Below are positions 5,541 to 33,834 of a stretch of 51,119 nt of DNA, in pieces; the first letter of the stretch is position 1, and each line of letters starts with the position of its first letter. Source of the DNA: Nemertoderma westbladi (Eukaryota > Animalia > Xenacoelomorpha); contig JAUCBJ010003090.1 of the NCBI GenBank assembly GCA_032718475.1, positions 1 through 51,119 on the forward strand, written 5' to 3'. Position numbers and translations under genes: made by a program. The notes under the pieces are model-generated. The model was not told where the DNA came from. It did no database searches and worked only from the letters and a program-made list of their open reading frames with translations.

Positions 5541-5542
5541 TA

Positions 5543-6990: not shown

Positions 6991-7328
6991 ATGGCTGTAG
7001 ATACATATATCACTCTACTTTCAGATAGCTCATTAAACACTTACCCCAATAATAACCCTAGTGAGTTTACTGTTGATTTAGCCGAAGAATTATATATTGA
7101 TCCAAACGCTAAAATTGGACTCGCGGAGATACAATATCAAGCAACATACAGTAATATTACTCTGCAAACTCAAATCTCGCTGTCAATCGGGGTAGATGCA
7201 AAGATGCCAAATAACTAAAAACAATCTTAATTACTTTACGTGACGGCCAAGGCGAATTAATTACTTTCAGCGGAGGTCGCACTGTTATAACACTTAAGTT
7301 AATATGCAGTGGTGGTGGTGATGGATGA
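6991..7328 (+). pseudogene. Penton/minor capsid paralogue 1, internally deleted
   Basis: N-terminus YITLLSDSSLNTYPNNNPSEFTVDL...IGLAEIQY (6991-7218) and, in another frame, C-terminus LKTILITLRDGQGELITFSGGRTVITLKL (7215-7328); both parallel the ends of the next ORF. Confidence 0.8.
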
Positions 7329-10003: not shown

Positions 10004-10005
10004 GT

Positions 10006-10489: not shown

Positions 10490-11095
10490 ATGGATAATAT
10501 TATTTTTGTTGATTTTCAATATTATAAGATAGACAATAAGGAATATCCAGTAGTATTTAAAGAATTTGCTATATTCGATTCTAATTACACCAAAACTAAT
10601 GTAAAGACGTTTTTAATTAAAGGTCCGCCTAATATTAAGTTATCAGCATTAGATGAAGCCCACGTAAACAATTTACGAGACATGACTTCGCATTTACCTT
10701 GGGATTACGGCGACATTTCGTAAGATGACTTTAAAAAATACATGAAGAGACATTTAAAATATAAAAAAAATATACATGTATTTGGGTTGATGAAGCGGGC
10801 AATATTAGTTTCCCAACTTGATGTTCTCGCACCAAATTTGATGGAGAAATTGTGGATATATCAATATCAGCAATATTACAATTATTTAACCCCCTGTCGC
10901 TTCCACGATCAATTTATTACACTAGAAAATAAATGTGCTTTCCACTTAAACACAAGGGATAACTGTCTGCGGTACTGCTCTGCAAAACGTGTCGGCGGGT
11001 TTGAATTGAAACGATTTTTCGTGAGAAAGCGTTTAACTGACACTGATGATAAACAGAAAGAAATAACTGCGGTGGAAGATGTACTCATACAGTAG
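10490..11095 (+). pseudogene. DEDD-like exonuclease-fold protein with a Cys/His cluster, in-frame stop at 10721-10723
   Basis: The two track ORFs share a frame (252 nt apart); IFVDFQ...FKEFAI, HLPWDYGDI, C-x2-H-x7-C motifs resemble a recurrent Polinton accessory gene. Fold assignment is inference. Confidence 0.6.
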
Positions 11096-11479
11096 GTTTA
11101 CTGTAAGCTTGTAATGTGGTGGGATATAATATAATTTTATTTTGGTGATGATCTTGATGTTAATATAAAAATATAATAAAATATAATTTTTTACAACAAC
11201 CCTATTTAAATAACTTGCGATATTTGCAAAGCTAGCCTTTTAAGTTTTAGCAATGGTGTGGACCAAGTATGTTGTAAGTACTTAACATATCTGTAGGTGC
11301 AACTAGGTAGTTCTACTAAGTATAGCAAGTTTAATGCATATACTTTGAAAGCTTAGAAAGTTTCTAGCATGTGCTTTGAATGTATTTATATTTACAACTA
11401 CTTAGTTTTAGAGGGTATACGAAGTTTTAAAGAGGCACTTAGAAAGATTAGTATGCCTCAACCATTTAATTTAAAAATA

Positions 11480-11655
11480 TAAATGTGACATTTTGTGATT
11501 GAGGAAGAGGGGGGGGGGGGGGGGGGGTATTAGGCTTACAAATTTACAATTGTCAAAGAGGGGGAGGGGGGTCGAGCTTGCGTGACACTTTGTGACAAGG
11601 GGGGGGGGGGTGTCAAAAATCTGGAAAATTTCCGTGACATACTTTATGAACGCCT
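11480..11655. repeat. One end of a Harbinger/Tourist-like MITE
   Basis: Poly-G runs, GTGACA repeats and a CGTGACATACTTTATGAACGCC terminus; partner end not found. Confidence 0.4.
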
Positions 11656-12049
11656 TCCTATCTCATATGCTGCGTTCTCTATATGGACGGACGGAATATC
11701 AGCGGCTAATAATCTCACTGGTCTTATATATCTATACACCCTGATCTACAGTACCTACGGAATTTCCTAAATTTTCATTTTCGAATAAAAATAATATATC
11801 AATTATTATTTAACATTTATTACTATACAAATTACGTTTCACACTAAAACAATATGAATATTGAAATAAAACAAAGCAGACACAATGCATTTATTTATTT
11901 ATAATTTATTCTCAATTTCAGCAAATATAGACATCAGAATAAGCAAATATAGTCTAATCTAACACTATTTAAACAAGAAATCAAAGAGTGAACATAAGTA
12001 ATTAATTCAATTAAATAAAGAACATAAACTGGACTGATATGTACTAATC

Positions 12050-12281
12050 GGGGGAAACTGGACGCAAATCCCATCTTGGCGAATTAATATCCCGCCTCAA
12101 TGTTAAATTCTCAATTTAGGGAAAGGAGCAGGTTTCAGTGGCACGTTATTTCAACCAAAACAATAAACTAAACACAACAGAACAGGTTACAGTTTTATTT
12201 TTGAGAGTAATCAGCTGTTTGTTATTTGCGTCGAGTTTACCCTGGAGAGGAATGAATTTTTATTGCGTCCAGTTTCCCCCC
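12050..12281. mobile_element. ~230-bp MITE; related copies at ~19662-19745 (partial) and ~32897-46000 (interrupted)
   Basis: TIR GGGGGAAACTGGACGCAA / TTGCGTCCAGTTTCCCCC; shared core CAGTGGCA...AACCAAAACAATAAAC. Confidence 0.75.
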
Positions 12282-12837
12282 ATCTGGCATTTTTAACGGA
12301 GGGTCTGTCTGAAAAACTTTGTGATATAGTTAGTTTACTTTGTTTTATTTTGCGAAGCAAATCAGTGTAATAAACGAGGCAAACGAGGGTCAAACTCATA
12401 ATACTGTCAAGTGCACTTGGCATGCATGTAATGCTGTGTAATATTATTTTACTACAATGGCGTATAATAAAATTGCAGTTACAGTTTACAAGTATAATTA
12501 ACAATAAAAAAATTAACAACAATTTTCAATAACTGTTTACAAAACAAAGTACAACAAAAACAAATTGTTGTTTCCAAAAACAAAGGCATATTTGAAAACA
12601 ACAAATAATCAAATTGCAATTCTTGTTTGCAATACGACTACTTCTTTTGCTAATATTGCAGTACAGTTACTGTAATAAGTATAATTAACAATAAAAAAAT
12701 TAACGTACAAAAAAACAAATTAAACAATAAAAATTGTTGTTTGCAACACAACGCCTACTTGGCATTATTCTGGTAATACAGTATAATACAGCATAAACGC
12801 TGTCACTGTCAAACATTACACTGTATTACTTGTTTAA

Positions 12838-13055
12838 CCCATTTGGCCCGGGGGAAGGGCAAGGAAGGGGGGGGGGGGGGGGTCATTATATAAAAATTTT
12901 TATGTTATATGTGTTTTATGTTGTATGTTAAGGAGAACAGAGATTTCGTGAAAAATTTCGAAAACCCGTACCATCAAAATTGTATTTTTTGAGCCAAGAT
13001 CTAAAACATTTCTAAAATGACCCCCCGCCCCGCGCAATTACTTTTCCGGTCCAGA
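12838..13055. mobile_element. piggyBac-like MITE (degenerate)
   Basis: TTAA-CCC start, GGGGGGTCATT / AATGACCCCCC inverted motifs, ends CCGGTCCAGA-TTAA. Confidence 0.5.
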
Positions 13056-13105
13056 TTAAATAATTTGAAAGCCTGACGGAATAAAAATAATACTATGATA
13101 GTAAT

Positions 13106-16100
13106 TTAGTCATGTTCATAATCCTTTATACATGGTATGGCAAACATCTTAGTTTTATGGGAAATTGAAATGAAATTGTTTACAAGTTGTGAAGCACAAA
13201 CAACAGTTTTTATACTCTGAGCAACCTCATAAACATGACAATTGGATTTAAGACAATCTCGGAAATGCGTTGGGAGATACCTCGCTTCTAATGTATTAAT
13301 TACAGATTTGGCTGTGAAAGAGGAACATAAACAGTACAATTTGTTATCAGACTGCTTCACAATATGTTCAATTTTGAGAAATTCCAAACCGCCATGAGCA
13401 TTTCGAATAAAAGCAAAATATGAAACAGACTGCCTTTTATATGGGTACGAAAACGAGTGGAATATGATATTATTTACTGCAATCCGGTACGCCACACTCA
13501 TTCCTGTACTCAGATCGATGTTATAGCAACTCATGTCACAAGGTAACACTGACACTGAGAAGAGTTTGCCTATAACAACCACGCCATTGGCGTCAGAAAT
13601 AAGTTTCGTTTCCTTATTTGACTCTGATTCAAAATTATGTTTATAGCGCAAGAAACGTTTTACTATAAGTGATGCTTCAGTTCTCTTGCCAGTAACAAAG
13701 CGCTTAAGATGGTAAAATGCACTTTCAAAAATTGAGGCTGACGCGGATGATAAAGAACCGAAAAGCCGTACTTGTTGAGCTAGATGCGACAATACATGCA
13801 GTGACAATGTTTGAACTCCAGTACCAAACAAGGTTGTAACAATTGATCTGAACGAGTTTAGCAATAATTCCGCAGCATTGATTTCATCATCAGTTATTGT
13901 ATCTTTAAGTAATAGTTGCATTGATGTAGTAAAACAAGCAACCATGACTAAAATTCTATTGTCAGTGTTCGTAAGGTAAAACAAGGGGATAGCGAAGTAC
14001 ATGAAGAATAGCTTAACCTCTGTAGCTTTCCAATGTTTTAGTTTAGCTAATGATCGTGGTGATCTTGTAAATTGTACCGGAACTCGAATGTTTTGCAATA
14101 TAGACGAAATAATTTGTGTATCAATAAATTCTTTGTTTATGAGATGTGTTAAGGTTGTCTTACCGATACCTAGATGCAATAGATGCATAGGATCAAACGG
14201 GGCACTGAATGGAATGTCAATAATATCACTTAGTGGGGAAAACCCTTTCACTCCTTTCTCTGGTTTTGAACTTTCTAAAGCTTTTTCTGCTAATCTTTTA
14301 TTGATTTCATTACTCCGTAGTGCCGAGGGGCTTGATTCAAAGGGAAATATCATTTTCGAATATTCGTGACTATATGTACCAGGGATTAGACACCAGGGAC
14401 AGGCGAAATATCCATTATGATGTACTATATTTAATACATCCGCTCTTGCTGGAGAATCAGCAATAAATTGAACAAGTTTAATCTTAATATTAAATTCATT
14501 CCAATCTAAAGAAAAGGATTTCGTAGATTCTATACCACATTCTATTAAATGCTTGGTATCTGGCTTTTTATCTCCGTGGTATAATGAGAGAAGCAATAAA
14601 TTTTCAAATTTCAGTCGTAAATGTGGAAAAAGATTTAATACAGAACACATGACGGGCCATAAAGTAAAACCTTTAGACTTATGCACGGGAACTACACCAT
14701 CCGTGTTAATGTTCAAATATAAATATCTTTTGTCGAAAGTATCAACATTTTGAAATCCTTTACTCACTGTAATGTCGGAATGTAGCCCAGTTGATTGTAT
14801 GACATTGCTTAAAGTATTAAAAATATTAGAATGTCTACGAATTAAATTTTCAACTTGACCACCCAGATCTACATGAAATATTGTCCCATCCAATACTTTT
14901 GTGGTTAATATATCACAACAACTTGTATCAGTTTCGTTTTCTATACTACAATATTTTGGACAACAATTAGGTACAGGTAAAATGTCAACAATGAATTCCA
15001 ATATTTCCTTTGCTGCAGAATCAGTAATTTTATGCTTTAACATAATATTAAAATATTGTCTTTTAAATACATGTGGGGCGAGCCACGAAGTGAGTGAGCC
15101 TTAGCGTAGTGGTAACATTAATCAACCTGTCGTTCTGTCGTTCTGTCGTTCTGTCGTTCTGTCGTTCTGTCGTTCTGTCGTGTTCAATTTTAAACGTTAA
15201 TAACTCGGCCAATCTTTGATGAAATCTATCCAAACTTGGTACACATGTTGTTTGGCAAAAGTTTAGAAATTTTCCAAGTAGAATTTCCGTGTGGCCTTCG
15301 AGAAGCTAAGATAATAGCAGTTAATTAGTTAATTAAGTTGATTGCGGTGAAAACGCCATTTTCAACCTGCCTTTTAAAGGAAATTAATCGTTTTACAGTA
15401 TAAGATTTAAATAATTATACTTAAAAATTATACAGATATAATCCCCATACGCCATTCTATTATAGTTTTTAATTAGTTTAAGTGATTTGCTTTAATAAAT
15501 GTGTCTTTAATTGATCTAAACGTAATTAAACCGCACAATTATTGAGTACAAATTTAATCCTTCCCATTATTGGTCAAGTCTCTGCTGGTGTGGAGCTAGC
15601 TGCTGGGAGTTGTGGCTGTAGACTAACCTGAGAGGAATTGTAATAGAGGCAACCAGTATTGCTATTCCAGCCCAATCACTGAATTGTGTTTATTATAGGC
15701 TGGACGGGCCGCATAACCGTTCGACTATTACTACTATTGCTATCTCAGTTAAATGACAGATATAATAACATAAATACAATCCATGGCATGGCTGTTGTAG
15801 GCTTCTGAAATAGTTTATTCCACAATGTATATGTCTGGTTATTTTTTAATTGAATTTTTGCAAAGTAGTAAAATTAATGTTCTTAAAAATAATATTATTA
15901 TTTTATATGTAACCTAGGAAATTAGCTACATTTTTTCGCTGCAGCTTTAAGAGTGTACATTGATTTAATATATTATTTCAATACCCATATTACTACATCG
16001 GCATAAGATGCGTTGGCGTTGTATCACACATCTCCACATATCACACATCTCCACATAGATGTATCAACAGTTACTCGCACAGTTTCGAAACTTCGCATAG

Positions 16101-17045
16101 TTATAACTGTATAAAGATCGTCAGTCTGCGTTTAGGAAAAATATTTTATGACAAAACAGGACAAGCGACGAGCGCAACGAGGCATATAATGAAGACGAGT
16201 ACTGCGTTGACTAAATTATTATATAAACCACCTGGCTTCACATATTGATCGCATCCCTAGTTATTATTATTATAAAGATCGTCCTAGCTTGCGTTTAAGA
16301 AATATATTTAAATACAAAACAGGACGAACGCAAAGAGGCTTATAATGAAAACGAGTACTGCGTTTATTATATTCCTATAAACCACCTGGCTTTGCATATT
16401 TAACGTGCGATTGGAAATAAGTTCGTGCTACCCTTCCGTGGGTGGTAGATGTCGCGGTTATGTATTGGTGGTTGGGAAGGGTGGGGGGGGGGGGGAGATT
16501 AAAAGGGGTGAACACGTACTGTCCACCTTTCTTTGATTGATTGGTGGTGTGGGTAAATTTCTCAAAACCTGATTTTGTGATACAGTCGCTGCATTTTAAT
16601 TTGTATATAATAACTAGGCCTCGTGCTGCGCGAAGTCCCCACGAACGTGTTGCGTAATTCTGGAACCTTTAAATAGATATAATTCTGACCAATCGTTATC
16701 ACTTGTACTTGACTCTGAAGTTGAATTCCCTGAAGTAAATTCATCAAATAATATTGGTGATGAGGTTAATCTGGTATATACATTAAGGTTGTCACGGAAA
16801 TCTTCATATAACTCCGACATAGAACTTTGTGATTCATTAATATTTTCATCTAGAACGGGTTTACACGAAATTTGAGAATCATGTGCATCAAAATCATAAT
16901 GTTCGAAAGACGAATTCGATGAAAAAGAAGTATCACTTTGTGTAATCATGGAGCTTTCAATGTGGACCCTTCGAGAAGGTCGAAAGTAACGTTTTCTGGA
17001 AATGTATTTACCGTTATATTGAGATCGATTATAATTTCTTTTCAT
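13106..17045 (-). pseudogene. CACTA/EnSpm (Tnp2-type) DDE transposase, 787 aa when reconstructed, interrupted at 15075-16650
   Basis: LNINTDG, LWPV, FIADSPARA...HNGYFACPWC, FDPMHLLHLG, WKATE, LHVLSHL...FES motifs; joining 17045-16651 to 15074-13106 restores a single frame (LFKGSRITQHVFKRQYFNIMLKHK). Confidence 0.92.
15075..16650 (+). mobile_element. Non-autonomous Helentron/DINE-like insertion
   Basis: Clean interruption of the transposase at a TT site; (CTGTCGTT)n microsatellite ~15127-15180; GTGGGG/CCCCAC short inverted ends; terminal CACG-AA-CGTG hairpin; internal ~135-bp duplication (16111-16246, 16272-16400). Confidence 0.65.
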
Positions 17046-17236
17046 TGTACTTGTGGGAGTTTATACCACCATTGATAACTCGAGATTTGTGAGATAACAC
17101 TACATTTTAAACAGCAGCAAAAAACTGTAGATTATAAACAATGTGAATAATTAAATGACTACTTTTAAAATAGGGACTAAAGAATAGAACAAATTAAACA
17201 AAATGCTTACAGAATATTAAACAAACCGTAAACTTA

Positions 17237-18061
17237 CCGTATTTCTTCGAATAAGAGCCCACCCTCGAATAAACGCCCCCTCGAATTAACCCCCCCCCCC
17301 CCCCCCCCCCCCTTACCATCAAATTAGCAACTTAAACGTCTTCCCCGAATAAACGCCGCGGCGTTTATTATATTAATAGTGTGTTATTAAATAAGATTTT
17401 GGTACGGTATTTCAGGTCAGAAGGGCCTGATAAATGTCTAAAAACATACTTTTCAGGGTTAACCAATAAGGGTTAGACGGAGGATTCCCAGTTAGGTTCA
17501 AGGATACTTTGTGTCTAAGGTTTCGATTGCCGAGTCAAGAAGTAAACCCATATGTATGTGTAAAATGTAGGTATGGTTACTGTGTAGGCTGACCCTGTTT
17601 CTTATTAGGGTATTATTACATTCAAAATGCTGAAAATCTAGAACATAAAAATAAACGCCCCACTAGAACCACACAATTTGGAACTTAAACGCCTTCCCTG
17701 AATAAACACCTCCTCCCCAATTGGCCATTTATAAACAAGTAAAAGTAAAGTAAATTTTCTTCGGCCGCTAGGCCAGGGATTACGCACAAAGTCTGACGAC
17801 TTATTTCCAGTGCGGTCCCCCCAGAACTTTACTCCCCAGAGGAAACTCCAGTACTCATTTAGCTACCACTTAAGGATGCAAGGCAGAGATGCGCCCTGGC
17901 TGGTCCCTTTAAAGCATTCGTGCCGAAACGAAAACTGCCCTGGCCCATGTGAGGATCGAACCCACGACCTACGGGAGATGTAAATTCAATGCAACCACTA
18001 CACCAAGGTGGAACCTGACACTCTTATTCGACCTGACAGGCTCTTATTCGAGTAAATGCGG
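17237..18061. mobile_element. Tc1/mariner-pogo (Tigger-like) MITE
   Basis: TA-CCGTATTTCTTCGAATAAGAGCC ... GGCTCTTATTCGAGTAAATGCGG-TA; internal GAATAAACGCC repeats. Confidence 0.8.
17738..18015 (-). mobile_element. tRNA-derived SINE inside the MITE
   Basis: Minus strand A box TGGTGTAGTGG (18005-17995), B box GGTTCGATCC (17962-17953), ~200-bp body and (TTTAC)n tail. Confidence 0.8.
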
Positions 18062-18235
18062 TACGTAGGTCTACTCTACTATATTAAAATCCATGCGTTA
18101 GTTAGAAGGCTATAGCAGGCCTGTTAGCCTATGCATAATATTAATTAATAATAATTATAATACTATTATTTAATATTTATTATTTATAATAATAATAATA
18201 ATATTAAAACTAAAATCGACATAATATAACTTAGC

Positions 18236-19507
18236 TTAGCTTAGTTCGTAGTTATTGCTAACATCAGCAAAATTTTCTCTATCTTTTGATCTCATATATT
18301 TTACAGCATATCCTGTACTTGAACTTGATCCCCTCTGACGCTTATTTCTGTAAATGTCATTCCCAAGCTGATTTACTGCTACAATCGCGGTTCGAATCTC
18401 CTGATAATCTATATCCTCATCAAAGCTGAACCTTGATATTAAAGCCTGTTTAAACAACTCGGATCGCTGTGGAGATTGAGGCGTTCTATCAGTAGATTGC
18501 ATTCTTTGTGGAAAAAGTATTTTTTCCGCAAGTTCTTTGTCGGTCCACAGATGACGGGCCAAATATTGGCTATAACCTAGCGAATCTAAATTCCTTGCCC
18601 CGATATTGACCAAATCCTTACCATTAAACAGGACTGGGTTGGTGGTGTCTCCCGTCCTCATACTTCCATTTCCATCCCCCACTACGTTCACTGGAGCAGA
18701 TTTTTTAATAATACGTGTAATATTCTTGTACAATTTTTCAGTTTTCGCAAGTTGAGCTGTCTCGATGCTAACTAGTTTTTTAAGAAGCTTGTTGTTATCT
18801 TTCAGTAGACGTTCAGTGACCTGTTCATAGCGAGATGGAGATCCATTGGAGCCATCTGTGCTGTCAACTTCTTCATCACCGCACACATTTGCACTCTGAA
18901 TGTCTTCCCCGTAACCACACAATTCTTCCAATGTGTTGCTAGTCTGAACAACATCTTCTTCTTGGCTGCTTATCTCTATTGCTCCAGAACCAGTACTAAT
19001 AACGCAAGGAACCGATTTATCCAAAAATCCAAAACTTGCATTAGGATTTCCATCCCATTCCTTGTTAAGACGACTTTCCCGGAGCATCATCTCCTCCTTG
19101 TTATCACAATGGTAAAGGTAAAATGCTGGAACTCGTCCTGCCAATCCAGATTCATCTTTTAGAAGTATTTTCTGTCTTCTTTGGATTGTATCCAAATCGA
19201 GATCTTTAGGTAATCTGGTCGAATTACTTGTTATCACAGAGTACCTCAACTCATCTGGGAAAAATAGAAGAATATAATTAGTATTGCATTTCTTTGAGAA
19301 AATGCGAGGATTGCGAATGGGACGTCGGACAGCAATCGTGTTAGGGACGGTTTCCACTTCGGCGTTATAAGTTGCAGAGTTACCAGTATTCATATTGCGC
19401 ATTGTAGGTGTGTTTAATGCTTGTATATCATCATATCTTTCTCCATCACCTCGAAAATCGTGACCCAGGTCGCTTAATTGCATTTGCTTAGAATAATTCA
19501 TGATCAA
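18236..19507 (-). CDS. Transposon accessory protein with coiled coil and C-terminal BEN-like domain
   Basis: Intact 423-aa ORF co-oriented upstream of the transposase; YLARHLWTDKELAEKIL...PQSPQRSELFKQAL resembles the BEN pattern (L..LF..EEL ... L.P.R..I). Confidence 0.7.
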   Translation of the reverse strand: MIMNYSKQMQLSDLGHDFRGDGERYDDIQALNTPTMRNMNTGNSATYNAEVETVPNTIAVRRPIRNPRIFSKKCNTNYILLFFPDELRYSVITSNSTRLPKDLDLDTIQRRQKILLKDESGLAGRVPAFYLYHCDNKEEMMLRESRLNKEWDGNPNASFGFLDKSVPCVISTGSGAIEISSQEEDVVQTSNTLEELCGYGEDIQSANVCGDEEVDSTDGSNGSPSRYEQVTERLLKDNNKLLKKLVSIETAQLAKTEKLYKNITRIIKKSAPVNVVGDGNGSMRTGDTTNPVLFNGKDLVNIGARNLDSLGYSQYLARHLWTDKELAEKILFPQRMQSTDRTPQSPQRSELFKQALISRFSFDEDIDYQEIRTAIVAVNQLGNDIYRNKRQRGSSSSTGYAVKYMRSKDRENFADVSNNYELS

Positions 19508-21175
19508 TTGTTGTGGAATTAAGTATAATAAGTTTAATAATATATAGTGTAATAATAACTAAGTATAATATAATTAAGTATAACGGTGAATTAAGTACAC
19601 TGTATTATATATATATTGAATATATAAGTCATATGTTATCATTCATATGCGTACCTGTGGTAAAAGGAGCAGGTTACAGTGGCAGGCTTTTCTAACCAAA
19701 ACAATAAACGATAATTCAATAACATAGTTTACAGTCTTATTTTTGCAATACGAAAATACCACAGGTTAGGATATGAACTATAGATAACTAATTTCTTGAT
19801 GAAAGCTTGAAAATAATGACAATACCATGAAACCTCAGAAGATAAACTTCAAAATTTCAATCAATGTGTCGATAAGTATAATAGACTAGTATTAGTCTAT
19901 TATAATTAAACACTAACACCACCCAAACACAAGTAAGACCAACAACACAAACCTAAACGATCATCATAAAAAACACCGCCTCTCTGTTAAACAAAGTTCT
20001 CTTTTATATCATTTGGAAATATAAAATGTGTTGTGATTGGATGCTATGCCGAAAGGGTAGGATTATTTTTATCTGAAAGTTAATTCTGTCAAGTCTTTGA
20101 AACCAGACTTTCAGTATTTTTCAATGGATGAACGGAAAATATAATATATTTTAATTGACAGCTGGATGTTTTTATAGGACACGTTTTCATATCACAGGGG
20201 GTCTTCATGTATAAAATATTATGTTGACATCTTGTCAAACCATTGAATAGTGCCGACGGGCGAATTCAGTGGAAAACATTCTTAACTGGATTATAAAGTT
20301 ACAATTTAATAAATTTAACCGTATAGGGTGGCTGACTTGTAGTTAACGTCACAGTACCACATACTAACAAACCAAAGTACAGGAGTTGGAGTACACTGAA
20401 GTAACTACTACTACTAGTACTGTGCACTGGCTGACCTGTCAGCTTGTTCTTGTACACATTTACCTGTAGTTGGTACCGGTATCATACAACAAATCTTCAA
20501 AGCCTAGTATGATATGGAATGCCCGCCAAAACATTGCTATCCTTTGTAGGCCTACAACATACTTCACCTCTATTGGACAATTTTAATTGAAAAAAAAGCG
20601 GGAAATTATGTTGGTATGAAATTCCCCACCTCTGTAATTCCTTTAAATGACTTCACAAATTTGTTATTATTTCCTCTTAAAAATTTGTCAAATTTGCTAA
20701 ATTTTTTTAAATATAATAAGGATTGGAAATATTTTTGTATATTTGTTAAGTACTGATAAGTACTTGGAATATCTAGTACACGATTTTTAAAACATTGTAG
20801 ATTACAAAAGTACTTCGGACTTAATAAATTTAATAAATATTTACACTGTAAATGGCATGGGCTTAGTTAGTCTACTCTGATTTTTCAATAGGGAAGTTCT
20901 CTAAAAAGAATCAATTGCGCTAGGTAAACCATACACATTTAACAATATGATGTAGACGTAACATGTACAGTAAGTATTCTCGACATCATTCTAATATAGT
21001 TGTACTGGTATTGCGAAACAGCCTATACATCGTAAACTAATAACACATACAGTAGTTGACTAGTGATATAACTTTAGTAATATTAGTCAGAAATGCAACA
21101 TAAACTGTATAGGATGTAGTGTTAACCTGTTGGTATCGGTACTGATAAATTCAATAATTTATTATAGGCCTAACC

Positions 21176-21995
21176 ACAACTGTCATCCACTTTATCAGTA
21201 CCGGTAGTGTTTTACTCTTCCAACACTGTAGTCACAGTCTACTGGTATCAGTACAGCAGTAATCTGAAACAATAACATACTGCTGTCATGACCTGGATTA
21301 CATGCAGGGGTCTCACATATAGGGATTAGATCACCTACCCAAACAATACAGTACTGCAGTACTGTCACTGTTGTTGTAACAGTATAGTCAGATAGAGCAT
21401 ACTGATTTCCTTTGATTAGCATTGTACTGTAGTACCGGTACTACAGTATTAATGTAACAGTACCTGCAGTAACAAACTAAGCCAATGTATACAATATCGT
21501 GAGCCAGTTACAATCAGATGTGTACGCAGTCAGCCACACTGCGGGATGCGGTCAACCTCACAGCTACCCTCGCAGCTCCTATCTACAACTGTCATCCACT
21601 TTATCAGTACCTGTAGTGTTTTACTCTTCCAACACTGTAGTCGCTGTCTACTGGTATAAGTACAGCAGTAATCTAATGCAATAGCATACTGCTGACATGA
21701 CCCGGATTGCACGTGTGGGTCTCACATACAGGGATTAGATCCCCTACCCAAACAATACAGTACTGCAGTACTGTCACTGTTGTTGTTGTAACAGTATAGT
21801 CAGATAGAGCATACTGATTTCCTTTGATTAGCATTGTACCGCAGTACCGGTACTACAGTATTAATGTAACAGTACCTGCAGTAACAAACTAAACCATTGT
21901 ATACAATATCGTGAGCCAGTTACAATCGGATGTGCGCGCAGCCAGCCTCGCAGCCAGCCTCGCAGCCAGCCTCGCAGCCAGCCTCGCAGCTACTA
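21176..21995. repeat. Tandem duplication of a ~409-bp unit rich in palindromes
   Basis: ACAACTGTCATCCACTTTATCAGTACC at 21176 and 21585; 12-bp (GCAGCCAGCCTC)n expansion at the end of copy 2. Confidence 0.9.
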
Positions 21996-22105
21996 CCGGC
22001 TAGGCCCGCAGTCAGCCCGTGAGAGTCATACTTATTCAAACGAGGTTAGTTTTCCCTAACTACCGATAGATTGATTGAAAAATAATAATGTTTAATTTTC
22101 ACCTT

Positions 22106-22669
22106 CTAATTATCAATATATTCTATACCTAAAGTCACAACACCAAACATTAATAAATAATTAACCAGTTTACTAAATATAGGATAATAAATGTGAAATT
22201 TGCTAGGTGAGCACATTAAAGTACATTTACCGGTATGAAAGCAGCAAATGACTATGGTATTATTTATTCTTATTTTGCAATTATTAAAAATTTCAGGTTT
22301 ATATATATCGTACATTATATTGTATTGTACATTATCAAAGACAACATAAAACCCGGTATTGTTTATCAATAACCTATAGACTACAGACTTAATACTAAAA
22401 ATATAAGTACATAAATTAACAGATTTTAAAATCAAATTAATACTAGTTTTATCAAATATATGCTTTTTTACTTTTTGGAAATTATACTTACTACCTAATA
22501 ATGTAATACGACCATTTTTAAATATTAATAATGTGGCACCAAATATCTTATATATAAACTGATTTGGTTTGAGTATGTGTTTACCAGATAATTGATTTTT
22601 TAATTCTTTCAAATTAATCACTGACACTTGCTGGCAACTTACATTCTTATTAACTATCTGATAGTTCAT
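22106..22669 (-). CDS. Divergent TATA-binding protein (TBP)-like protein
   Basis: Two-repeat TBP signature: YQIVNKNVSC...INLKEL, ATLLIFKNGRITLLGSK, YKPEIF...IVICCFHTGKCTL; 187 aa is the size of a TBP core. Confidence 0.8.
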   Translation of the reverse strand: MNYQIVNKNVSCQQVSVINLKELKNQLSGKHILKPNQFIYKIFGATLLIFKNGRITLLGSKYNFQKVKKHIFDKTSINLILKSVNLCTYIFSIKSVVYRLLINNTGFYVVFDNVQYNIMYDIYKPEIFNNCKIRINNTIVICCFHTGKCTLMCSPSKFHIYYPIFSKLVNYLLMFGVVTLGIEYIDN

Positions 22670-25600
22670 TGTTTGGCTCCCGATAAATAGGTATATTGTT
22701 TTTTTTTACGGGTTTTTCAACCTTTGTTTGATAGTGACCCCAGGGAAGTGAATGATTTTTATTAACCCAATAAAGTTTATCGTCAAATGTGCTGAGAGCA
22801 AACTTATCTCGTGCTACAGTATACACTTTGTGTAATTGACTCTGAAATTGATGCGTTTCCTTGGAAATTTCTTTGTTATCCTTATATGCTCTTAAATAAT
22901 CTTCGTGGCAAATATTTTTATCCACGACAGCTCTTGTTATTCCTTTCGCCCGTCGTATATTTTTGTTATTCCATTCCAAAATTGAATATAATTTTGGTCT
23001 TAAAAATACTGCTTGTTTAATCTCTCTCGAGCACAACTCGTCTTTACAGTAATAGAGTCTGGATTTATTTTTATCGCTGTAGAGAGGGTGATCCTTGGGG
23101 TAATTGGATGTATCTAGAATATTATTTTTAATTAAGGCTTTTAAAAAATTATTCTGCGATGTATTATAGTAACAACCTATTAAAGAGTCCGTATCTGATG
23201 CTACAATTTCAATACGACAGTTTAATTCTTTCTCAATAGGTAGCAATTTATTATAGTACAACTCATACATATCCAATTTAGCCAAGTCCAAGACAGTACT
23301 ACCTATATAGACCGGTTTATCGAGAGTTACAGAGTCTTTCACTAATAAGTGTCCCGATAAGGAATCGTTATAAATCATGAAATTTTCATGATTTATACGT
23401 TTTACCAATAAATCACATTTACTTTGGTATTCGCGATACGAAAGTTACATCGATCTCTTATCTTTTCTATCGTTTTTCCAAATAACGAATTATTCAGAAG
23501 CTTTGCAACAGCTGTTTCAATGTAACTTTTTGCTAATCGCCTTTGATTAATATTAAAATCTATATAGGGTTTAAATACAAAGTCTTGATGGAAAGAATAC
23601 AATTTATGTAGTTTAGTAACAATTAAACCTTGTTTTATATAAAATTTTAACAGTTTCAAATTTACATGATAGAATTCTTTATCGAATTGTGTCAACATAA
23701 GTTTTGGAGCACACATCTTATACTTGCTATTAGTACCTCTTTGTTTACATACATGATTATATTGTTCCCTCATATATGGTGAAAGCATTGTCTCATTTAT
23801 ACTTAAATGTTCTGGGGCTAAGGGTAGTTCTAATGTACGATCATGAATATCTTTGGGATATTTCAAATCGCAAATTAAGAAAATCCCAATATCCCCTTCA
23901 GTATCAAGATTTGTTAAATAGTTTATTAGTTCTTCTGGAGCGGCATTCTCTAAATATGTAACGTTGACTTGTTCAAAACCTGAAACAGGTAGCTTTTTAC
24001 TTAAATTACCCGAATACAAGGAATTAAAATCTATATTGAAAATATGACACTCTTCCTTGCTTGGATCATAATTATCAGTATCTGGTATATTTGATTCTAT
24101 GTAATGCTTTCGACAGAATGAAACCCCTCCTCTAATAGATGCTTCAAAATCTCTATATGTTTGGTAATCTTTTATTAATGCTAACTTACATTTATTGTAT
24201 TTCAGAGCGCAATCATAAGTGAAAGCTGCAATACTGCAATAATAAACTACTTCTAATTCGTAGTTTTGTCTACATACTCTCCTAAAGTTCTCAAATATAT
24301 CAGCGAGGAGACAAATATCGAGTTTTAAGTATGCTAAAAGATAATCCTTGAGATTTGTACACTCAAACTGACTCCATGATGCGTTGGCAAAACTATATTC
24401 CTCGGGAGTACAGGTATTTTGTGTTAATTTACTATAAAATTTGTCTATTGATGGTAATTTCGAATCATTGAATTTATTTAAATCTGTCAGATACTCGTAG
24501 GGAAATATACCTTTTCGTTTAATTGTTGCATTATTTAAATTCGGATAAAAATATTTCATTTGCTGTTCAGTAATTGGTAGAACTGATGTTATATCCTCGC
24601 TGTCTATATCCTTTGTTGAACAATCAACTAAAGTACTTAGGGAAAAGGATAAAAATTGATATGTGTCTAAGACACGTAGCTCAATCTTTGTTTTTGAGTC
24701 TTTCACCGGTATATGCATGCTTAGTGAAATATACCTTTCAGAATTTTTAGGGATCACCTTTATATCCCAATCGGAATATTTATTGTTGGTAAAACCAACT
24801 TGTAAAAGAAAATGCAAATCATAGTGATTGCAGTTGTGTGCAGCGAGTATATACATGTGTCGTTTCAACGATAAAGAGCGGTTACATGCGTTACAAGCGG
24901 CCGCTATATAGTTACCAGTAATATGTGAGTGATGTTTGTTTTTCTCAGATTTATCCTTAAATAAAACATTGCAATAAAAGCAAGTTTTAGCTTTCCAAAA
25001 ACTTAACTTATCTACATCATTAAGTATCATCTTTTCTCTCGTGTTAGTTTCCGACCACTTATATAATTGGGTGATGTCATTATATACAGAGTCTAAAAAG
25101 TCTTGAATACAGTTGTTGTCGATTGTTTTTGTAAAGGTCTTCAAATAAAATTTTGGTGGATTGATTAATTCGGTACTAGGGACAATTAAATAACTTACAG
25201 CGCATGGAATATGATTCTGAATAAATTTACTGTTGCTGGATGGCTCCAAAATAGATTCTATGTCAAAATATATTACAAACAATGCTGGTAATGTTCTGTC
25301 TAAATTTCTAAAGCTAATGTGAGTTCTTTTTTCAGATGGTAGCTTCTCAACTTGACTTTTTCCTCGATAACAAGCAAGACGGTGACATTCTAGAACATCC
25401 TTGCTGTAGGACTGAGACAAACACTGTTCACAATATTTCCTACATCTAATATGCTTACCTGCTGTATTCAACAAACGATTTAAGTTAGTTATGCAAACAT
25501 AATGTGATTGTTTTGATTTATTCTTATTTTTTACAAGTAATATATTCAATAACTCTTTATCTGGAGTGATTTTACTAAATGGTGCCTGTCTTAATATAGA

Positions 25601-26665
25601 TACTCGATTGTTGTCGTAGAGTAATAAATTAATTATATATGCTGAATTCTGTTTTTCAAAAAGTTTAATTGCAAGCTGCCATTCTGTTGGATAATCTTTG
25701 TTCCCGTTGTCAAAAATAAAATGATTCATGTAATCTGTGTACTGCGAAGTACGGTTTTTGTGATCTTTCACTTTGCTACTAAATTTTGTGGCTATAATAG
25801 CCCATTTGAAACAGTCATTATCAGCCGTTTGTATATTTATTGTGCATTTTTTAGCTGATAGAGCCTTAGGTAACACCATATAACCGTGACCTTTATATTC
25901 CAGTGACCTACACTTAGATTCAGCTACTTTAATTTCCACTCTTAATAAAGATTTAACACGCCATCCTGAGCCACGAGTGTTAAATATGGCTATTCTTTGC
26001 ATTAATTTTTCTAGTACATACTCAAACCATGTGTCAAAACTTTCATGTGAATCTACGGTATTAACTGCACCACCTGAAGAACTAAAATAGAAAGTTTCTT
26101 CTTGGTCTCCCTCTGAAAAATGTGATCGATACATGAGTATATTCACACCTAGCCAGGTTCTAAGTACATTCATTTCGCTAAGTTTTCCTAATAATAACGT
26201 TTTGATGTGAGGTAGAATGTGAACTATCGATGAATGAATATCAGGAAAATCTTCATCATTCGGAAGATTGTAAACATAGATTTCTAAACGGTTATCATGT
26301 GCGGCTCGTTCGAGGCTAAAAATTGATGGACCTTGACCAGATTTCAGTCTTTTTCTAGATGCGACAGTATTGTTTTGGTTCCGTTGTGGTGGTCTAACAT
26401 GATAATAACGTTGGTGACAGTCGTGATGTAAATAATTCTCATATAAATACTCTTTATTACAAGTAGGACAAGTTTTTTCATACACGCAAAACTTCATTTC
26501 TTTACATCCCGTAGTTGATTCATGTCGTTTGCATATTTCTTCACGTGAACATTTCACTCGACAATTAAAACAATTGTATTCTTGAAAATGTGATTTCAAG
26601 TGAGTTAAATAATTTCGTTTAGAAATTTGAAGAGGACAAAATGGACATTTCAATTGTTTATCCAT
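22650..26665 (-). pseudogene. polB: Protein-primed family B DNA polymerase with N-terminal Zn fingers and endonuclease VII-like insert; 1-nt frameshift at ~23423
   Basis: Exo motifs IYFDIES, HNCNHYD, YLKLDI; RKGIFPYEY; motif A IDFNSLY, motif B KLLNNSLFGK, motif C SDTDSL (in 22650-23408), FLRPKLY, RAKGI. Confidence 0.95.
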
Positions 26666-27208
26666 CTCTTTATTATCCTAAAAACAATTTAAAATTAATA
26701 TGAATATTGTTATATATATAATCAAAAAAAATTCATAAGCTACTCAACATAAATAAAATATAATATCTAAACTTTAATTAATTTAATATTTTCAGAATGA
26801 GCTCGATTGAATCAGTTGAGCTCTTTATATATATTTCAAGTTTCTACTTATACCAACCAATCATAAATAACAGTTACATTGGAAACTAATATCATAAATA
26901 AAGTTGCTTTTACAACTGAATTCTTTATAATAAAATCAAGTCTAAACCAAGATGTGCATAATACGTTTTTAATTTTCATTGATAAAGTAGGTTTTACATG
27001 CTAATGTTTTATTATGGTGGTGTAATCTCACGCATTTACATGGGAATGTTTTTATACCTAATCCCGTGCTTACATTAAACTATCACCAATATTTACTCAA
27101 TAAAGTCACCTTTACATGCAAATACTTTATAATAATCATGCTTTGTGTTAAAAAGTTACCTTTACTAGTTAGTGTGAAACTGAAAAAAAGTCTCTAGTTA
27201 ATAATAAA

Positions 27209-27953
27209 TCAATCTGATACTGTTTTTATATGTTCCTTATTGTAATCTGCTACCTCTTCACTTGCTTTTGTAACTTTTATTTTCTTTGTAGGTATAGAAT
27301 CATTGTTGTGAATGGAAGATGTTTGAGATGTAGATCTGCACTTTCTATCACTCGATGTCTCTTCGATGTATGTCTTTGGATTAAATGTAGATGAAACTAC
27401 TTCTGGAAATGACTTATTAACCTTAAACTTCCAAGTTGGTTGATATAGAATCGTGAAACCGTCTGCTATATCAGTTGATGAAACCTTTAACATCATATCA
27501 TAGAGAAACTCTATATGTGGTATGTCTTTATCGTAATGTAACTGTAAATATTTGCTTTCCTTGTCTGTAATAATTACTTTTTTTTCTTGTACATTTATTT
27601 TTACTTTAAGTCGGTCAGATAAAGCTTTATCGCTCGTATCTAGCTCTGAAAAGACACCTTCGTTACTAATTTCATAATTCCATTCATACCACAATGAATT
27701 TACTTCCGATGCTGTTAAGTTAAACCCATTATAATACCTAAGACCAATAGCATCAGAATATCTAGCTGAAATCTCCCATAGTCCCATATAAGTCGTTCCT
27801 TTATATTTGCTTACAAAACCAACAAAAGATGGGTTGGTTAAATTAACAACAGAACACTGATTTATTATTTCGAGTGGTGGTGATAACAATTCTAATATTT
27901 CTGTCTTACTCTGAAGCAATAAATTAATGAGTGATTTGTTTAGAATTTGACAT
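27209..27953 (-). CDS. PC4/Sub1-like ssDNA-binding protein (start possibly frameshifted; ATG at 27953)
   Basis: FVSKYKGTTYMGLWE...YNGFNLTASEVNSL parallels the PC4 pattern VxxFKGKVLIDIRE...KGISLNPEQWSQL. Confidence 0.55.
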
Positions 27954-28043
27954 TTGCCTTGCTTCTGAATATATACGTTTTCAGTAATAACACAGGTGGA
28001 AATATTTAACTTTCCTCTTGTAAATTCTATATTAGGATAAATA

Positions 28044-28253
28044 TTACCTCTTGAAACTGATGATTCCTTTTTGTCGGTTGATTAATATTTCTAAGATGTC
28101 TAGAATGTAGAGTGTATCCCAGTAAGAGAAGCATGTTGTTACATTGCTATCGCTTGAGTGTAATATAAAGTACTTGCCATAAACAATACTACAGGTATAT
28201 TTATTACATGTAAATTTCCAAGTATTGTTTGAACTTTTTTTAAATAAATCCAT
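28044..28253 (-). CDS. Small hypothetical protein (69 aa)
   Basis: ATG-initiated, co-oriented with the polB block, CATATAAA ~70 nt upstream; no family recognised. Confidence 0.35.
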   Translation of the reverse strand: MDLFKKSSNNTWKFTCNKYTCSIVYGKYFILHSSDSNVTTCFSYWDTLYILDILEILINRQKGIISFKR

Positions 28254-29109
28254 AATTAGAATGAAAACTATTTTGAAAAATAAAAAACTAAATAAATGAT
28301 TATTAGATTGTAAAACTTCGGTTTATATGCTTGCTTTATTACAACAGAGTGACTTACAGTGAATAATATAGTAGTTTCGTGTAACAGATGCAACGTGTAC
28401 AGCTAAAATTATTACATTAGCGTGAGTTAGAGAGTGAAATAGCAGTAACGAGTAACAGATGCAACGTGACCAATTTTAGTCCTATCAATCTAACTTATAT
28501 TCAACTTAGTTGACCGACCAGTCACATATATACATCGATAAAAGAAATCGATTATTATTAATAGTCGAATTAATGTATTCTATGCTATAGTAATTATGTT
28601 AAGAGACTAGAAGCTATTTATAAACATCTGCTACCAGTGATGAAGATGAAGAATTCAATGACTATGGTATAACTCAGATATTTATTGCCTTTTTCTCTCG
28701 TGGTTGGATGGAAGAGTGTGTGGAGAATTGTGGTAAAACACTAGGGTACAGCAACGTGGACAAGTAGCGAGTGGGTGGATAGGAAATCATTGAGTTGACA
28801 ACAATCAATCAATAACAAACAACACTAAAGAGAGAGAGAGGGAGAGAAAAAAGTGAAAGGAAGAGTAACCATCATAGCTACGGTAGGTATACGAATGAAT
28901 GGTTAGGTTAGGCTTCGTACTGTACAGTACAATATCAAATCATATCATCGATTGAATATTTTGTTATAACTTGGATATTTATTGCCTTTTTCTCTTGAGG
29001 TTGGGTGGAAGAGTGAGTGGTGGGTTGTGAGGAGTTATAACGGTCCCGAGTTCGAACCCAGTTGAATATTTTGTTATCTGAAAAATTGCAAAATTAATTT
29101 AGTTACTGG

Positions 29110-29692
29110 TGAAAAATAGTAGAAGTTACCTGTAGACACCTCTAGCATCTGTAAAATAAAGGTTGGTGAATATGAAAATACTGGTTGCTGAAAAATAGCG
29201 ATTTGAAAAATAGTAGAAGTTACCTGTAGACACCTCTAGCATCTATAAGATAAAGGTTGGTGAATATGAAAATACTGGTTGGTGAAAAATAGCGATTTGA
29301 AAAATAGTAGAAGTTACCTGTAGACACTCGTAGCGCCTGTAAAATAAAGGTTGGTGAATATGAAAATACTGGTTGCTGAAAAAATAGCGATTTGAAAAAT
29401 AGTAGACGTTACCTGATGCTAAGTGTAGACACCTCTAGCGTTTGTAAAATAAAGGTTGGTGATTGGATGCAGTACTAGCGTTGGGTGACTAATAACGCCT
29501 CTAGCGGAATAAGCGGGAACTTGAGAAGTTGCCATGGTTACGAATAAAATGCTGGCATCTGATTGGTTGAAATAATAACGACCACTGGTAAAGGATGAAA
29601 TGGTGGCTTCTGATTGGATGCAGTACTAGAAATGGACGGTAATAATGGGCTATGGGTGACCGTGGCGTGGGGGGCTACAAACATATACTACT
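29110..29692 (-). repeat. Right TIR of the Polinton, with ~3.5 copies of the 94-bp unit
   Basis: AGTAGAnGTTACC recurs at 29118, 29212, 29306 and 29401; reverse complement of the left TIR. Confidence 0.95.
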
Positions 29693-31354
29693 GTCTTACA
29701 CGTTAAACAATTATTTACATACAGTAGCTAGGCCCGTCTCTTCAAACTGGACGTGCGTTCGTATTATGCAAACACGTGCTGCTTTATTGAATAAAGAAGC
29801 ACACATTAATATAAATAGAAATAATACTTAAATAATAGTAATTTAAGTTGTTTCCAGGTTATTGATTACTTTGCAGCGTTCCGTCCTATAAGCCGCAACG
29901 CTGAAAGTAGTACATGGCAGCGTTACGAGTAATTCACCAGAACGCTGTTAAGTTCACATAATGTAACAAAATACTTTAATTATATAAATTGGTACTTTTT
30001 TTGTTGCTCGTACAGCGATATATTAGTGGTACAAAGTAAATTAACTGTAGTATTATACAATATTGCTTCCGTAGTTACTGCAATTCATATTATTGTACTC
30101 TTTAACTCCTGATGCTGCCTTACTCAATGTTAAAATAATTTAGTGTTCTCGAATATTTATTACGTAACTAGAGAGCCGCTTAACAACATAAACCAATATT
30201 GGATATTGAGCTCCGTTTTGGAGTACGCCGGGCAGACACTAAATTTGTCATTACGTGCAAACCTTTTCTACGTCAATGCGCTTTGAACACATTTAATAAA
30301 ATTAAAGAAATTCCACCAAAAATATTTTATTTTATTTTTTTCGCCGGGAATAAAGTAAATTCAATGCAATCCTATGTGTGTTACTTTTTTCCCTAGGGAA
30401 GAAAAGTGGGCAAATTTTTCTCCCGATTTGGTCTATATTCGAGCGAAAAAGTAACAATTTAAGAATACAATACTTTAATTATAGGAGATGCGATTACTAG
30501 TGATATGTGGTTGAAGTACGCGATGGAACATCCAGAAGCGAATATGAAATTCGCTAGGAAACCGAGTAAGAAACACTACCCGAAGACGGCTAGAGATTTC
30601 TATGAGATTGAGGTTGATCTAATGAATGAGGTTGATCAAATGGATGAGGTTGGAGAAATGTAACACTGTAATATACAACATAAAAACACATAATTGAATA
30701 CTGACTAGACCCAAATCAGGTCGGGTAATGTCACACTTTATAATATGATTACAGACGAAAATTTTTTTTCCGAGTGAAGTAAAATAAGTTATATTAGGGC
30801 TGCAATCTTACAATGATACGCGTGATTTTTAGGCTACAACTGCAAAAGTGTGTCACAAAGTGCTGAATGGGTGGGTGTGAATCCTGGCTAAACTGCAAGA
30901 AAAATAATTACTGTACAAGGTCAATTTATTGAAAGGTTTATGTGAAATAGGAGACATTATTATTATACAGATCCTCACAGTTTTTGGTCGCGAGTTCTAG
31001 CCCCAGAAAAGGAACAGCCTAATTTTGTTAAACTGTTAGCTCTATGGAACTAGCTTCAACTCACCTGTACTGGGAACATGCATGGTAATGGCTGGGGAGT
31101 AAATTAGGGAGGGGGGGTAAAGAAATGGGTTGCATATAGTGCATATAGAAAGCATTTGGGTTTGGAAGTTAGTGTGGCGACCTCTCTTCAGTACAGGTAA
31201 CATCCAAAAGTTTTCCTTATGTTTTACGGTGATTACTTAGGGTTTCTATGCGAGGAGTACATTTAGGATTCCAATTCAGAGAAGTACATGTGTTAAATTT
31301 CCTACTGATCAATATTTTCACTGTTTTCCGGGTAATTTACAGTGTTTTTCATAT

Positions 31355-32208: not shown

Positions 32209-33834
32209 CGGTACGGTACCGTTCGACCACCAATAGGATCTGTATATATTCCTTCCTTTAATAATAAAACCTTCTTGGTCGTATAATAATGTTTCAGATG
32301 TTACGTAAACTCAACGACGCGATAATACTTCAATAAATTCTATATTAAATGGAATTGATTTAGGGAAACGCGATGAAAGGATGAAAGAAACAGCAAGCGC
32401 GATAATCTTTATTATCACGCTTGCTGTTACTTTCATAAATTCGATATTGTATAATAATGATATTTCTCTGTTTTTAATGTTATTATTAGCAAATTTTCGG
32501 GGGAACCTTTAGACAAAGTAATGTCAAATATCTAACAAAAAAATATTAAAATATGTAGATTGTTTAAATTATATGTATAAATTCTATAATACATACAAAA
32601 CACAAAATATAATTCAATTGGAGTCAGGACCCAGTAAATAAGGATTACCCACCATTAATGTATAAATAATTATATGTTTGAGTTATTAAATTAATTAATA
32701 ATTAATTTGGTGTTAATAATTAAGTTAAATAATTATATTTAGTTAATAATTAAAACGGTGAAGGGAATATATACTTATTAGTGTCATATATAACCAATAA
32801 TATTGATCGGTGCAATAATACAAATGATATTCACTTTGATATCCATTAGTGTTCATTTTAAAATTAAAAAATTCAAGTAAATTATGAGACAGGGGTGGGG
32901 GGAAACTCCCTCTCGGCGAGTAATATCTCGTCTCAATGTCAAATTATCAGTTAAGGGAAAGGAAAAATTTTACAGGGTGTCAAGTTTCTGCAGCAGTCGC
33001 GTTTCGTCAACAGTCACTTTTCGGCAAAAAAGTTGAGTTTCGTCAAGAAAGATGCTTTTCGGCACAAAAATCGCGTTTCGGCAAAAAAAATTGCGTTTCG
33101 GCAACAGTCGCGATTCGGCAAAAAAGTCGCGATTCGGAAAAAAAAAGTTACGTTTCTGAAAATGCGTTGACTGGAGAATACAATATACTATCATCAATAC
33201 GAGTAAAAGTGAAACAAGCAGGACATTATAAATAAATACAATACCGATTCAGTAGATGCCATGCTATTAAAAGTTTAGCTTCCTCGGAATAATGTTGTAA
33301 TACTGTACGTCGTGTCAACCATGAATTTTGGTGAGGCCCTGAAAGTCCTAAGTAAGAGGCTTTCCGGGCGGGTTCGTTCAATTAAAAGAGGGTGATTCAA
33401 ATGTGTACAGATGGGGACTTACGAAAAAAAAAATAAAAATAAAAAAATAAAATAAAAAAAAATATATTTGTGATCAGATACTTGGCCCATTCTCACGAAA
33501 ATTGGCCAAAATGGGTGTTTCCCAAAAATAATAATTACCTGAATATAGAAAACCCACATACATATTTTCTGAAAGCTCTTGATGTCAGGATTTTCATAAC
33601 AGTGTATCTTGGCTGATAGGATAGGCTGATGTAAGGTGTAGGAAGGCTGTCCGGTCTGAAAGAGATGAATCTGCCGTGGGTTTGTGAGAAGTATTAATCC
33701 CGAAAAGTCTTGTCTGGCTAATAAAAAATAACATTTTTTGCTTTTTTTGCCCCGTTTATACCTTATTTTGTCCCTATCGGAATATTTGCGTATTTTAAAA
33801 ATACCGCAAATCTACAAAAGAAAGGCCCTGCCCA

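Follow-up and report, generated by a model that had tools for sequence, protein, structure and literature searches.

A TBP-like gene inside a complete Polinton

The window, by which we mean the whole stretch of DNA that was analyzed (51,119 nucleotides), contains a complete Polinton that spans positions 2040 to 29692. The cores of its terminal inverted repeats (TIRs) at 2040-2289 and 29443-29692 are 250 nt long, are 98% alike, and have AGTAGT ends, and the element is flanked by a 6-bp target duplication, GTCTTA, at 2034-2039 and 29693-29698. Long TIRs with AG/AGT ends, a 6-bp duplication, and pPolB, integrase, ATPase, protease, and capsid-like genes are the features of the Polintons, also described as Mavericks or adintoviruses, and all of them were found here. 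The main features are listed below; L numbers denote other loci.

2040-2550, plus strand: left TIR, with the AGTAGT end, the 250-nt core, and subterminal repeats
3777-4226: RING-finger gene, upstream of the ATPase gene
4439-5119, plus strand: packaging ATPase gene, with P-loop matches, a weak Pox_A32 match, and E values of 1e-40 to 1e-45 against ORFs of other Polinton loci
5157-5540, plus strand: gene for a small basic protein with a pX-like tail (weak Adeno_PX match, E 0.013)
5820-6725, plus strand: retroviral-type integrase gene (rve, E 1.3e-10), with an in-frame stop just 5' of the conserved start region
6991-7218 (short) and 7321-8166, plus strand: two minor-capsid-like ORFs, the second of which matches ORFs in L068, L024, and L079
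8168-8734, plus strand: basic core-like ORF, labeled from its position and make-up only
8737-10003, plus strand: putative major capsid gene, broken into three frames, the middle piece of which matches a 429-aa ORF of L024 (E 5e-13); the capsid label is inferred
10004-10458, plus strand: broken adenain-type protease gene (weak Peptidase_C5 match; E 4e-10 against the L024 protease)
11200-20875, no strand: nested insertion (about 9.6 kb, low copy) carrying a CACTA-type transposase; borders approximate
13106-15043, minus strand: CACTA-type transposase gene (Transposase_21, E 4e-9)
22106-22669, minus strand: TBP-like gene, intact, 187 aa (Pfam PF00352; AF2 pLDDT 81; Foldseek and VIA-align matches to TBP; family profile 50 bits)
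22650-23444, minus strand: C-terminal frame of the protein-primed polB, the stop of which overlaps the TBP start by 20 nt; 91 ORF matches among polB loci
23402-26665, minus strand: main frame of polB, 1087 aa, with 313 relatives at E <= 0.001, many with PF03175
29110-29692, minus strand: right TIR

The left arm of the element carries the RING, packaging ATPase, pX-like, integrase, minor-capsid-like, core-like, putative major capsid, and protease genes, while the right arm carries TBP, polB, and, upstream of polB, two ORFs without a label (27209-28081 and 28044-28253, minus strand). The capsid labels are based on similarity to ORFs at other loci, and the minor-capsid label for 6991-8166 is our assumption from Polinton gene order and the look of the sequence. 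The nested insertion separates the TBP gene from the capsid block. Profile searches found no RNA polymerase subunit among the Polinton ORFs.

A preliminary description, made from the sequence alone, had placed an intact 187-aa ORF within the TIRs, overlapping the polB stop by 20 nt. Both points held: the frame is open and enclosed by the two TIR arms, and the C-terminal polB frame stops at 22650. polB itself is not intact in the present copy but is split into two overlapping frames. The named relatives of polB were few and came from insects and molluscs, which suggests an invertebrate animal as the likely host.

Several minor features of the element were also recorded. Subterminal repeat units of 72 and 94 nt occur in both TIRs (2278-2550 and 29110-29462), with unit counts that differ between the ends. 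After the protease, a two-frame gene at 10490-11095 has, by eye, the look of a DEDD-type nuclease, with no profile support; ORFs resembling it are found at 11226-11690 in L021 and at 8389-8943 in L024, in the latter directly after TBP. The nested insertion holds further ORFs without a label at 16614-17045 and 18236-19501. The ORF at 27209-28081 was considered, again by eye, as a PC4-type single-strand DNA-binding fold, but this label was dropped because Pfam, PHROGs, PDB sequence, and atlas searches were all empty.

Sequence and predicted fold of the TBP-like protein

The TBP frame runs unbroken from ATG to TAG, and the chance of an open frame this long at the base make-up of the ORF is about 1e-8. 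The encoded protein has a pI of 9.6 and consists of the two-repeat saddle only, without an N-terminal extension. The motifs quoted in support of two TBP-like repeats were located at residues 3-12 (YQIVNKNVSC), 47-61 (LLIFKNGRITLLGSK), and 123-128 (YKPEIF), and the Pfam profile PF00352 matched the ORF in two stretches with an E value of 2.2e-8 and 34.3 bits, above the cutoff of 22.9.

The AF2 model, which was built on a 124-row alignment of TBP-like proteins of which the Pfam match is independent, reached a pLDDT of 81 and a pTM of 0.72, with strands and helices arranged in sequence as in two TBP repeats; a single-sequence prediction without an alignment gave a pLDDT of 34. The expected saddle fold was confirmed by Foldseek, with 44 matches at E <= 0.001, TBP in every row listed (these extend to E 2e-6), and a best E value of 6.8e-10. 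The model aligned over the full-length two-repeat saddle of cellular TBP (PF00352; yeast 1ytb/7o4i, human 1cdw, and Sulfolobus 1mp9), with TM-scores of 0.52 to 0.67 and a VIA-align Z of 14.4 to the Sulfolobus protein (rmsd 4.1, 172 aligned). The best non-TBP match in VIA-align was the rolling-circle replication initiator RepDE, with a Z of 7.5. A viral structure library returned giant-virus and herpesvirus TBP-like proteins. An atlas search gave TBP in 30 of 30 matches with a score of 0.95, which we treat as a lead only, with a recognition value below the mark of the tool. Sequence searches with the single protein found relatives in 0 of 87 candidates and 0 among 1.84 billion representatives, one unrelated match among PDB sequences (E 0.24), and no match in PHROGs.

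Residues were mapped onto yeast TBP by sequence alignment and secondary structure, not by 3D superposition; the numbering offset and the residue roles are general background unless attributed to PMC1636458. The window TBP shares 17 to 20% identity with cellular TBP, and its first repeat is 5 residues shorter. Of the four intercalating Phe residues of yeast TBP, which we take to be F99, F116, F190, and F207, the last three align with F50, F128, and F144, in agreement with the earlier count of at least three. The F99 position falls in the shortened first stirrup and is likely lost. F38 lies at a strand start in the model, in a column that is Leu in 93% of the family; it could stand in for F99, but it is more likely a core residue, judging by its place in the model and in the alignment. 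The other DNA-face equivalents N7, R134, and K148 (yeast N69, R196, and K211) are kept, as is the PE.F motif of the second stirrup. On this TFIIB-side stirrup, YKPEIF, E126 is kept, but K124 stands where 99% of the family has Glu; the family stirrup, YEPELF, is nearly invariant, with Glu in 99% at both positions. The two corresponding yeast residues, E186 and E188, presumably form the TFIIB-contact stirrup, and the first of them is charge-reversed in the window TBP. With three intercalating Phe residues instead of four and an acidic stirrup altered at its first position, the protein lacks two defining features of a canonical TBP. It is also a far outlier of the wide compact family described below.

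Positions linked to sequence specificity were also changed. K132, V140, and C142 stand for yeast I194, V203, and L205, and N129 stands for Pro191. According to PMC1636458, three substitutions at I194, V203, and L205 alter the specificity of yeast TBP, and Pro191 has been proposed to fix the 5' T. A further difference from yeast TBP is the replacement of N159 by Ser. The three Phe residues together with N7, R134, K148, and the high pI suggest that the window TBP would bind DNA, and N129, K132, and C142 at the positions of Pro191, Ile194, and Leu205 suggest an altered sequence preference. Given K124, the link to Pol II in the window lineage may differ from the cellular one.

Copies in sequencing runs and selection

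Contigs from four public runs were aligned over 19500-29800. In the runs X1 and X3, the summed depth, which is no copy number, was about 30,000 over the TBP gene, 12,000 to 65,000 over polB, and 150 to 390 over the nested insertion part at 19844-20875, and it rose to more than 6,000 from 20876 onward. Thus, the depth step groups TBP with the multicopy Polinton and not with the nested insertion. Also present was a subfamily that differs at 48 of 293 nt (about 84% alike); one X4 contig of it carries TBP and the end of polB, and the TBP/polB overlap region itself is replaced in it. Contigs bearing a second organism label also cover the TBP gene.

Constraint among copies was assessed on 32 variants within the ORF, which were among 40 listed of 78. 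These fell at codon positions 1, 2, and 3 in the numbers 8, 5, and 19 (P = 0.002), and, when two rows beside 3' indels were left out, 19 of 30 were third-position variants (P = 0.0007). Silent changes accounted for 11 of the 24 changed codons, compared with 19% silent sites (P = 0.0025, listed variants). None of the 32 listed variants made a stop, and small indels in the last codons of TBP totaled 9 nt. Constraint of this kind had been proposed as a check on the gene, and the skew to third positions and silent codons in this partial variant list points to purifying selection.

Near-identical single contigs over 22040-28500 reached depths of 3,000 to 6,500 in X1 and X3, compared with 35 to 80 on a low-copy stretch, while X4 showed about 25 to 95 compared with 8. 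This sample-dependent depth may reflect a recent copy burst that differs between samples, or library effects.

Related loci and a compact TBP family

Ninety-five loci with a related polB (one of them a duplicate) were collected, and all frames were searched for TBP. Three of the 95, L021, L024, and L022, carried one, with 56, 46, and 49 bits, respectively, for the Pfam TBP profile; TBP is an extra gene that distinguishes these elements from most Polintons. L021 also has an integrase gene, and its TBP lies 5.5 kb after polB and directly before the packaging ATPase. In L024, which has an ATPase, an integrase, and a full capsid block, TBP follows polB at about 1 kb behind two small ORFs, and in the short locus L022 it also lies about 1 kb after polB, with two small ORFs between. 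A search for homologues next to polB in other Polintons had been suggested as a check: homologues exist, but these varied distances show that adjacency to polB is a lineage trait and not general. Among the distinct polB loci of at least 12 kb, TBP was present in 2 of 22 and absent in 20. Since most Polinton loci are without TBP, the protein cannot be a general requirement for expressing capsid genes.

The homologues in other Polintons, the silent-skewed variants, and the depth step at the nested insertion identify TBP as a Polinton component rather than a retrocopy from the host, which the preliminary description had named as a refuting case. The TBP gene is a real, constrained, Polinton-borne gene with a TBP fold. 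It may still stem from a host gene of long ago, as the quick tree described below was made without eukaryotic cellular TBPs.

A search with a 4-protein alignment found 442 relatives among 1,452 candidates. The best 120 of the 442, all with PF00352 and mostly 150 to 220 aa long, were chosen with a 4-sequence profile that included the window TBP, and they are defined here as a compact Polinton-type TBP family. Family members placed in Polintons are the three from L021, L022, and L024 only; the 120 proteins are known from sequence, without genomic context. The 120-protein profile scored the window TBP at 50.2 bits (best of 1,000 shuffles, 10.0), compared with 18.0 bits for a canonical profile built from 27 TBPs (25 archaeal, 2 giant-virus-like). 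A first repeat shorter by 5 residues, defined as [KR]Px[QMK][LIVFM], 11 residues, and then F, was found in 106 of the 120 family matches and in the window TBP but in none of the 27 canonical proteins; the two giant-virus-like TBPs keep the full first stirrup and grouped apart from the Polinton-type family. In a quick tree of 76 rows, with 45 sampled family members, the window TBP fell on the family side of a branch with an SH-aLRT of 100, on an end branch of 5.48 and with a skewed make-up. Its best identity to the family is 23 to 25%, and it departs from the family-invariant residues E124, P129, and G154.

None of the viral-contig scans that used polB alone, the 4-member TBP alignment, or P0183 gave a confirmed match, and none of 8 viral records contained PF00352. 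Scanning viral contigs for motifs yielded five loci: L096 and L218 carry more canonical TBPs, which were used as an outgroup, and the other three gave no TBP match. These motif scans, a context test independent of polB, found no Polinton-type TBP.

Upstream words in TBP-bearing Polintons

Two of the relatives have a shared, noncanonical TATA-like word upstream of their genes. In L021, CATAAAC precedes 6 to 7 of 12 genes, none of 60 shuffles was as good, and all 11 occurrences of the word are on the gene strand. In L024, TTAAGC precedes 7 of 13 genes; the word itself reached P values of 0.05 to 0.07, while its matrix scored above all 25 shuffles (PWM z 4.7). The words track gene starts and not element ends, and in the exact-word lists neither stands before TBP or polB. 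With automatic gene sets, L021 fell to a z of 0.9, while L024 stayed at 4.7. Of 20 TBP-negative loci, 2 beat all shuffles, so the contrast between TBP-bearing and TBP-negative loci is modest. The best exact words in the TBP-negative loci were ordinary TATA repeats in L010, L016, and L079 and AAATATCT in one. A KilA-N/DUF3627 gene at 11783-12643 of L021 has CATAAAC upstream.

In the window Polinton, no shared upstream word was found: exact words gave P values of 0.38 to 0.98 in most sets (lowest, 0.055), degenerate words gave 0.15 to 0.44 in 3 of 4 sets, and PWM searches gave 0.77 and 0.08. A box may be hidden by the high AT content of the upstream regions (72%) and by the decay of the copy. 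For the present copy, the absence of a shared word counts against a promoter-factor model. Two candidates were rejected. A TACWGTA-type word (P = 0.016) is palindromic and is enriched 5- to 6-fold in host flanks too, and AYATACW, spotted by eye before several genes, failed the shuffle tests.

Comparison with known TBPs and TBP mimics

Divergent viral TBP folds like the present one are known from giant viruses (Nucleocytoviricota), including the Heterosigma akashiwo virus TBP and an asfarvirus B263R homologue, and giant-virus TBPs ranked highest both among the named matches from the viral structure library and among the atlas clusters. Giant viruses with a TBP mostly carry their own RNA polymerase.

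The late TBP mimics of herpesviruses (EBV BcRF1, KSHV/MHV68 ORF24, and HCMV UL87) share with the window TBP that a TBP-like protein is encoded by a DNA virus without an RNA polymerase, and the 1005-aa herpesvirus U58 protein was among the structural matches (E 4e-4). The preliminary description held that viral TBPs are best known from viruses with their own RNA polymerase. This was too narrow, as the best-studied mimics, according to PMC4893493, are those of beta- and gammaherpesviruses, viruses that lack a polymerase of their own; these mimics bind a TATT box and recruit host Pol II. That such mimics recruit Pol II in viruses without a polymerase makes the earlier idea of Pol II redirection more plausible and less unprecedented. 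However, the herpesvirus mimics are large proteins that work in a six-protein complex and have been shown to bind and to recruit Pol II, whereas the window TBP is a 187-aa saddle known from sequence. No counterparts of the five other herpesvirus preinitiation factors were matched among the Polinton ORFs by Pfam or PHROGs; several small ORFs have no label.

Among published Polinton studies, Starrett et al. (2021) use the abbreviation "TBP" once in the main text, in the legend to Fig. 5, without analysis. There, a TBP-like gene is annotated in a midsize element with a protein-primed PolB. The preprint has the same label, and no TBP appears in the text labels on the maps of animal adintoviruses in Supplementary Fig. 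S2 of Starrett et al. The available part of PMC10675990 places TBP genes in mirusvirus-like elements and not in Polintons, and that of PMC7786948 holds nothing relevant to a Polinton TBP. In mainly the open literature, with Repbase-type annotations outside the scope, we found no published analysis of a Polinton TBP family. Viral TBP mimics are known from herpesviruses and giant viruses, and for related elements there is the one legend label.

Role of the TBP-like protein

We propose that the window TBP acts, as the late TBP mimics of herpesviruses do, with host Pol II and as a promoter factor specific to its element, and we put the chance that this is so at about even. In this model, TBP would bind a variant TATA-like word in Polinton promoters and, once bound, would recruit host RNA polymerase II to Polinton genes. 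TBP would probably be expressed along with polB, because there is no intergenic space ahead of it and no shared word before TBP in L021 and L024; expressed in this way, it would be made early and act on the capsid-block genes. The observed basis consists of the fold, the family membership, the location in the element, the presence across copies, and the excess of synonymous variants. The outlying position of the window TBP in its family, with the long end branch and the loss of E124, P129, and G154, speaks against the promoter-factor role.

A wider form of the proposal is more tentative, and we would put it at somewhat worse than even. Many Polintons may run a one-protein late-gene switch, in which a stripped TBP and its own word (CATAAAC in L021, TTAAGC in L024) coevolve in each lineage and activate the capsid genes via host Pol II; the window lineage would then be the most rewired, its TFIIB contact altered and its partner another protein. 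If true, the late-transcription trick of herpesviruses would have its smallest known counterpart here, and a staged viral cycle would be indicated. The wider question for the field is how capsid genes are regulated in Polintons and whether these elements, as true viruses do, pass through early and late phases. The defined deletion, the changed specificity residues, and the candidate words in the relatives make this question directly testable by binding and reporter assays, and the compact family may offer natural altered-specificity TBPs.

The best-surviving alternative, which we nevertheless consider unlikely, is that TBP is no transcription factor but a DNA-bending factor for replication, integration, or packaging that binds AT-rich DNA in or near the TIRs. 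Such a role would fit the proximity to polB, which TBP abuts in the window family and follows within about 1 kb in L022 and L024, and the two genes share one contig of the 84%-alike subfamily; the 5.5 kb between them in L021 does not fit. The Lys at the TFIIB-contact Glu, the lack of a detected promoter word in the window Polinton, and the existence of TBP-like folds in rolling-circle replication initiators such as RepDE are consistent with bending as well. Against this stand the upstream words of L021 and L024, which follow gene starts and not ends, and the near-invariance of the YEPELF stirrup in the family, a surface that we take to contact TFIIB in cellular TBP.

Slightly less probable again is that the protein is a decoy or dominant-negative mimic, also raised in the preliminary description, which would occupy host TATA boxes or soak up NC2, Mot1, TAF1, or TFIIA and so damp host transcription or defense. 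A DNA face that is mostly kept while the TFIIB contact is charge-reversed (K124) fits a nonproductive binder, and both the patchy presence (3 of 95 loci), like that of host-interaction genes, and the fast evolution of the window TBP agree with it. However, the specificity positions are unlike those of cellular TBP, which, going by PMC1636458, would weaken binding to host TATA boxes, and a positive role is the better fit for the upstream words that two relatives have as element-specific features.

A gene without present function, either a remnant in decay or a copy captured from the host, is improbable. The breakage of polB, capsid, and protease in the present copy and the lost family-invariant residues and skewed make-up of the window TBP would agree with decay, but the TBP frame is open, the subfamily variants are skewed to silent sites and include no stops, the family deletion is shared, and the Polinton-type profile scores far above the canonical one.

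Least probable of all is a role with another polymerase, such as that of a Pol III promoter factor for small element RNAs, or a role only with helper-virus machinery. In cells, all three nuclear polymerases use TBP, the structural matches include Pol I and Pol III complexes, and giant viruses carry TBPs, but no result points to another polymerase, the words of the relatives precede protein-coding genes, and the Polinton has no polymerase subunit.

Other features of the window

Just past the TBP stop, a noncoding direct repeat of about 410 nt is present at 21169-21954, with TACWGTA-rich copies that are 91 to 94% alike. Contig joints skip or repeat parts of it, and its length seems to vary among copies. 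A dispersed short repeat at 19663-19709, also found at 12133-12197 and 45917-45981, has very high depth and hundreds of flanks and is likely the end of a small mobile element. Beyond the Polinton, satellite arrays occupy 33700-43200 and 43319-45680, with units of 23 to 24 nt and 14 to 15 nt, and the second array contains an inverted block near 45590-45680.
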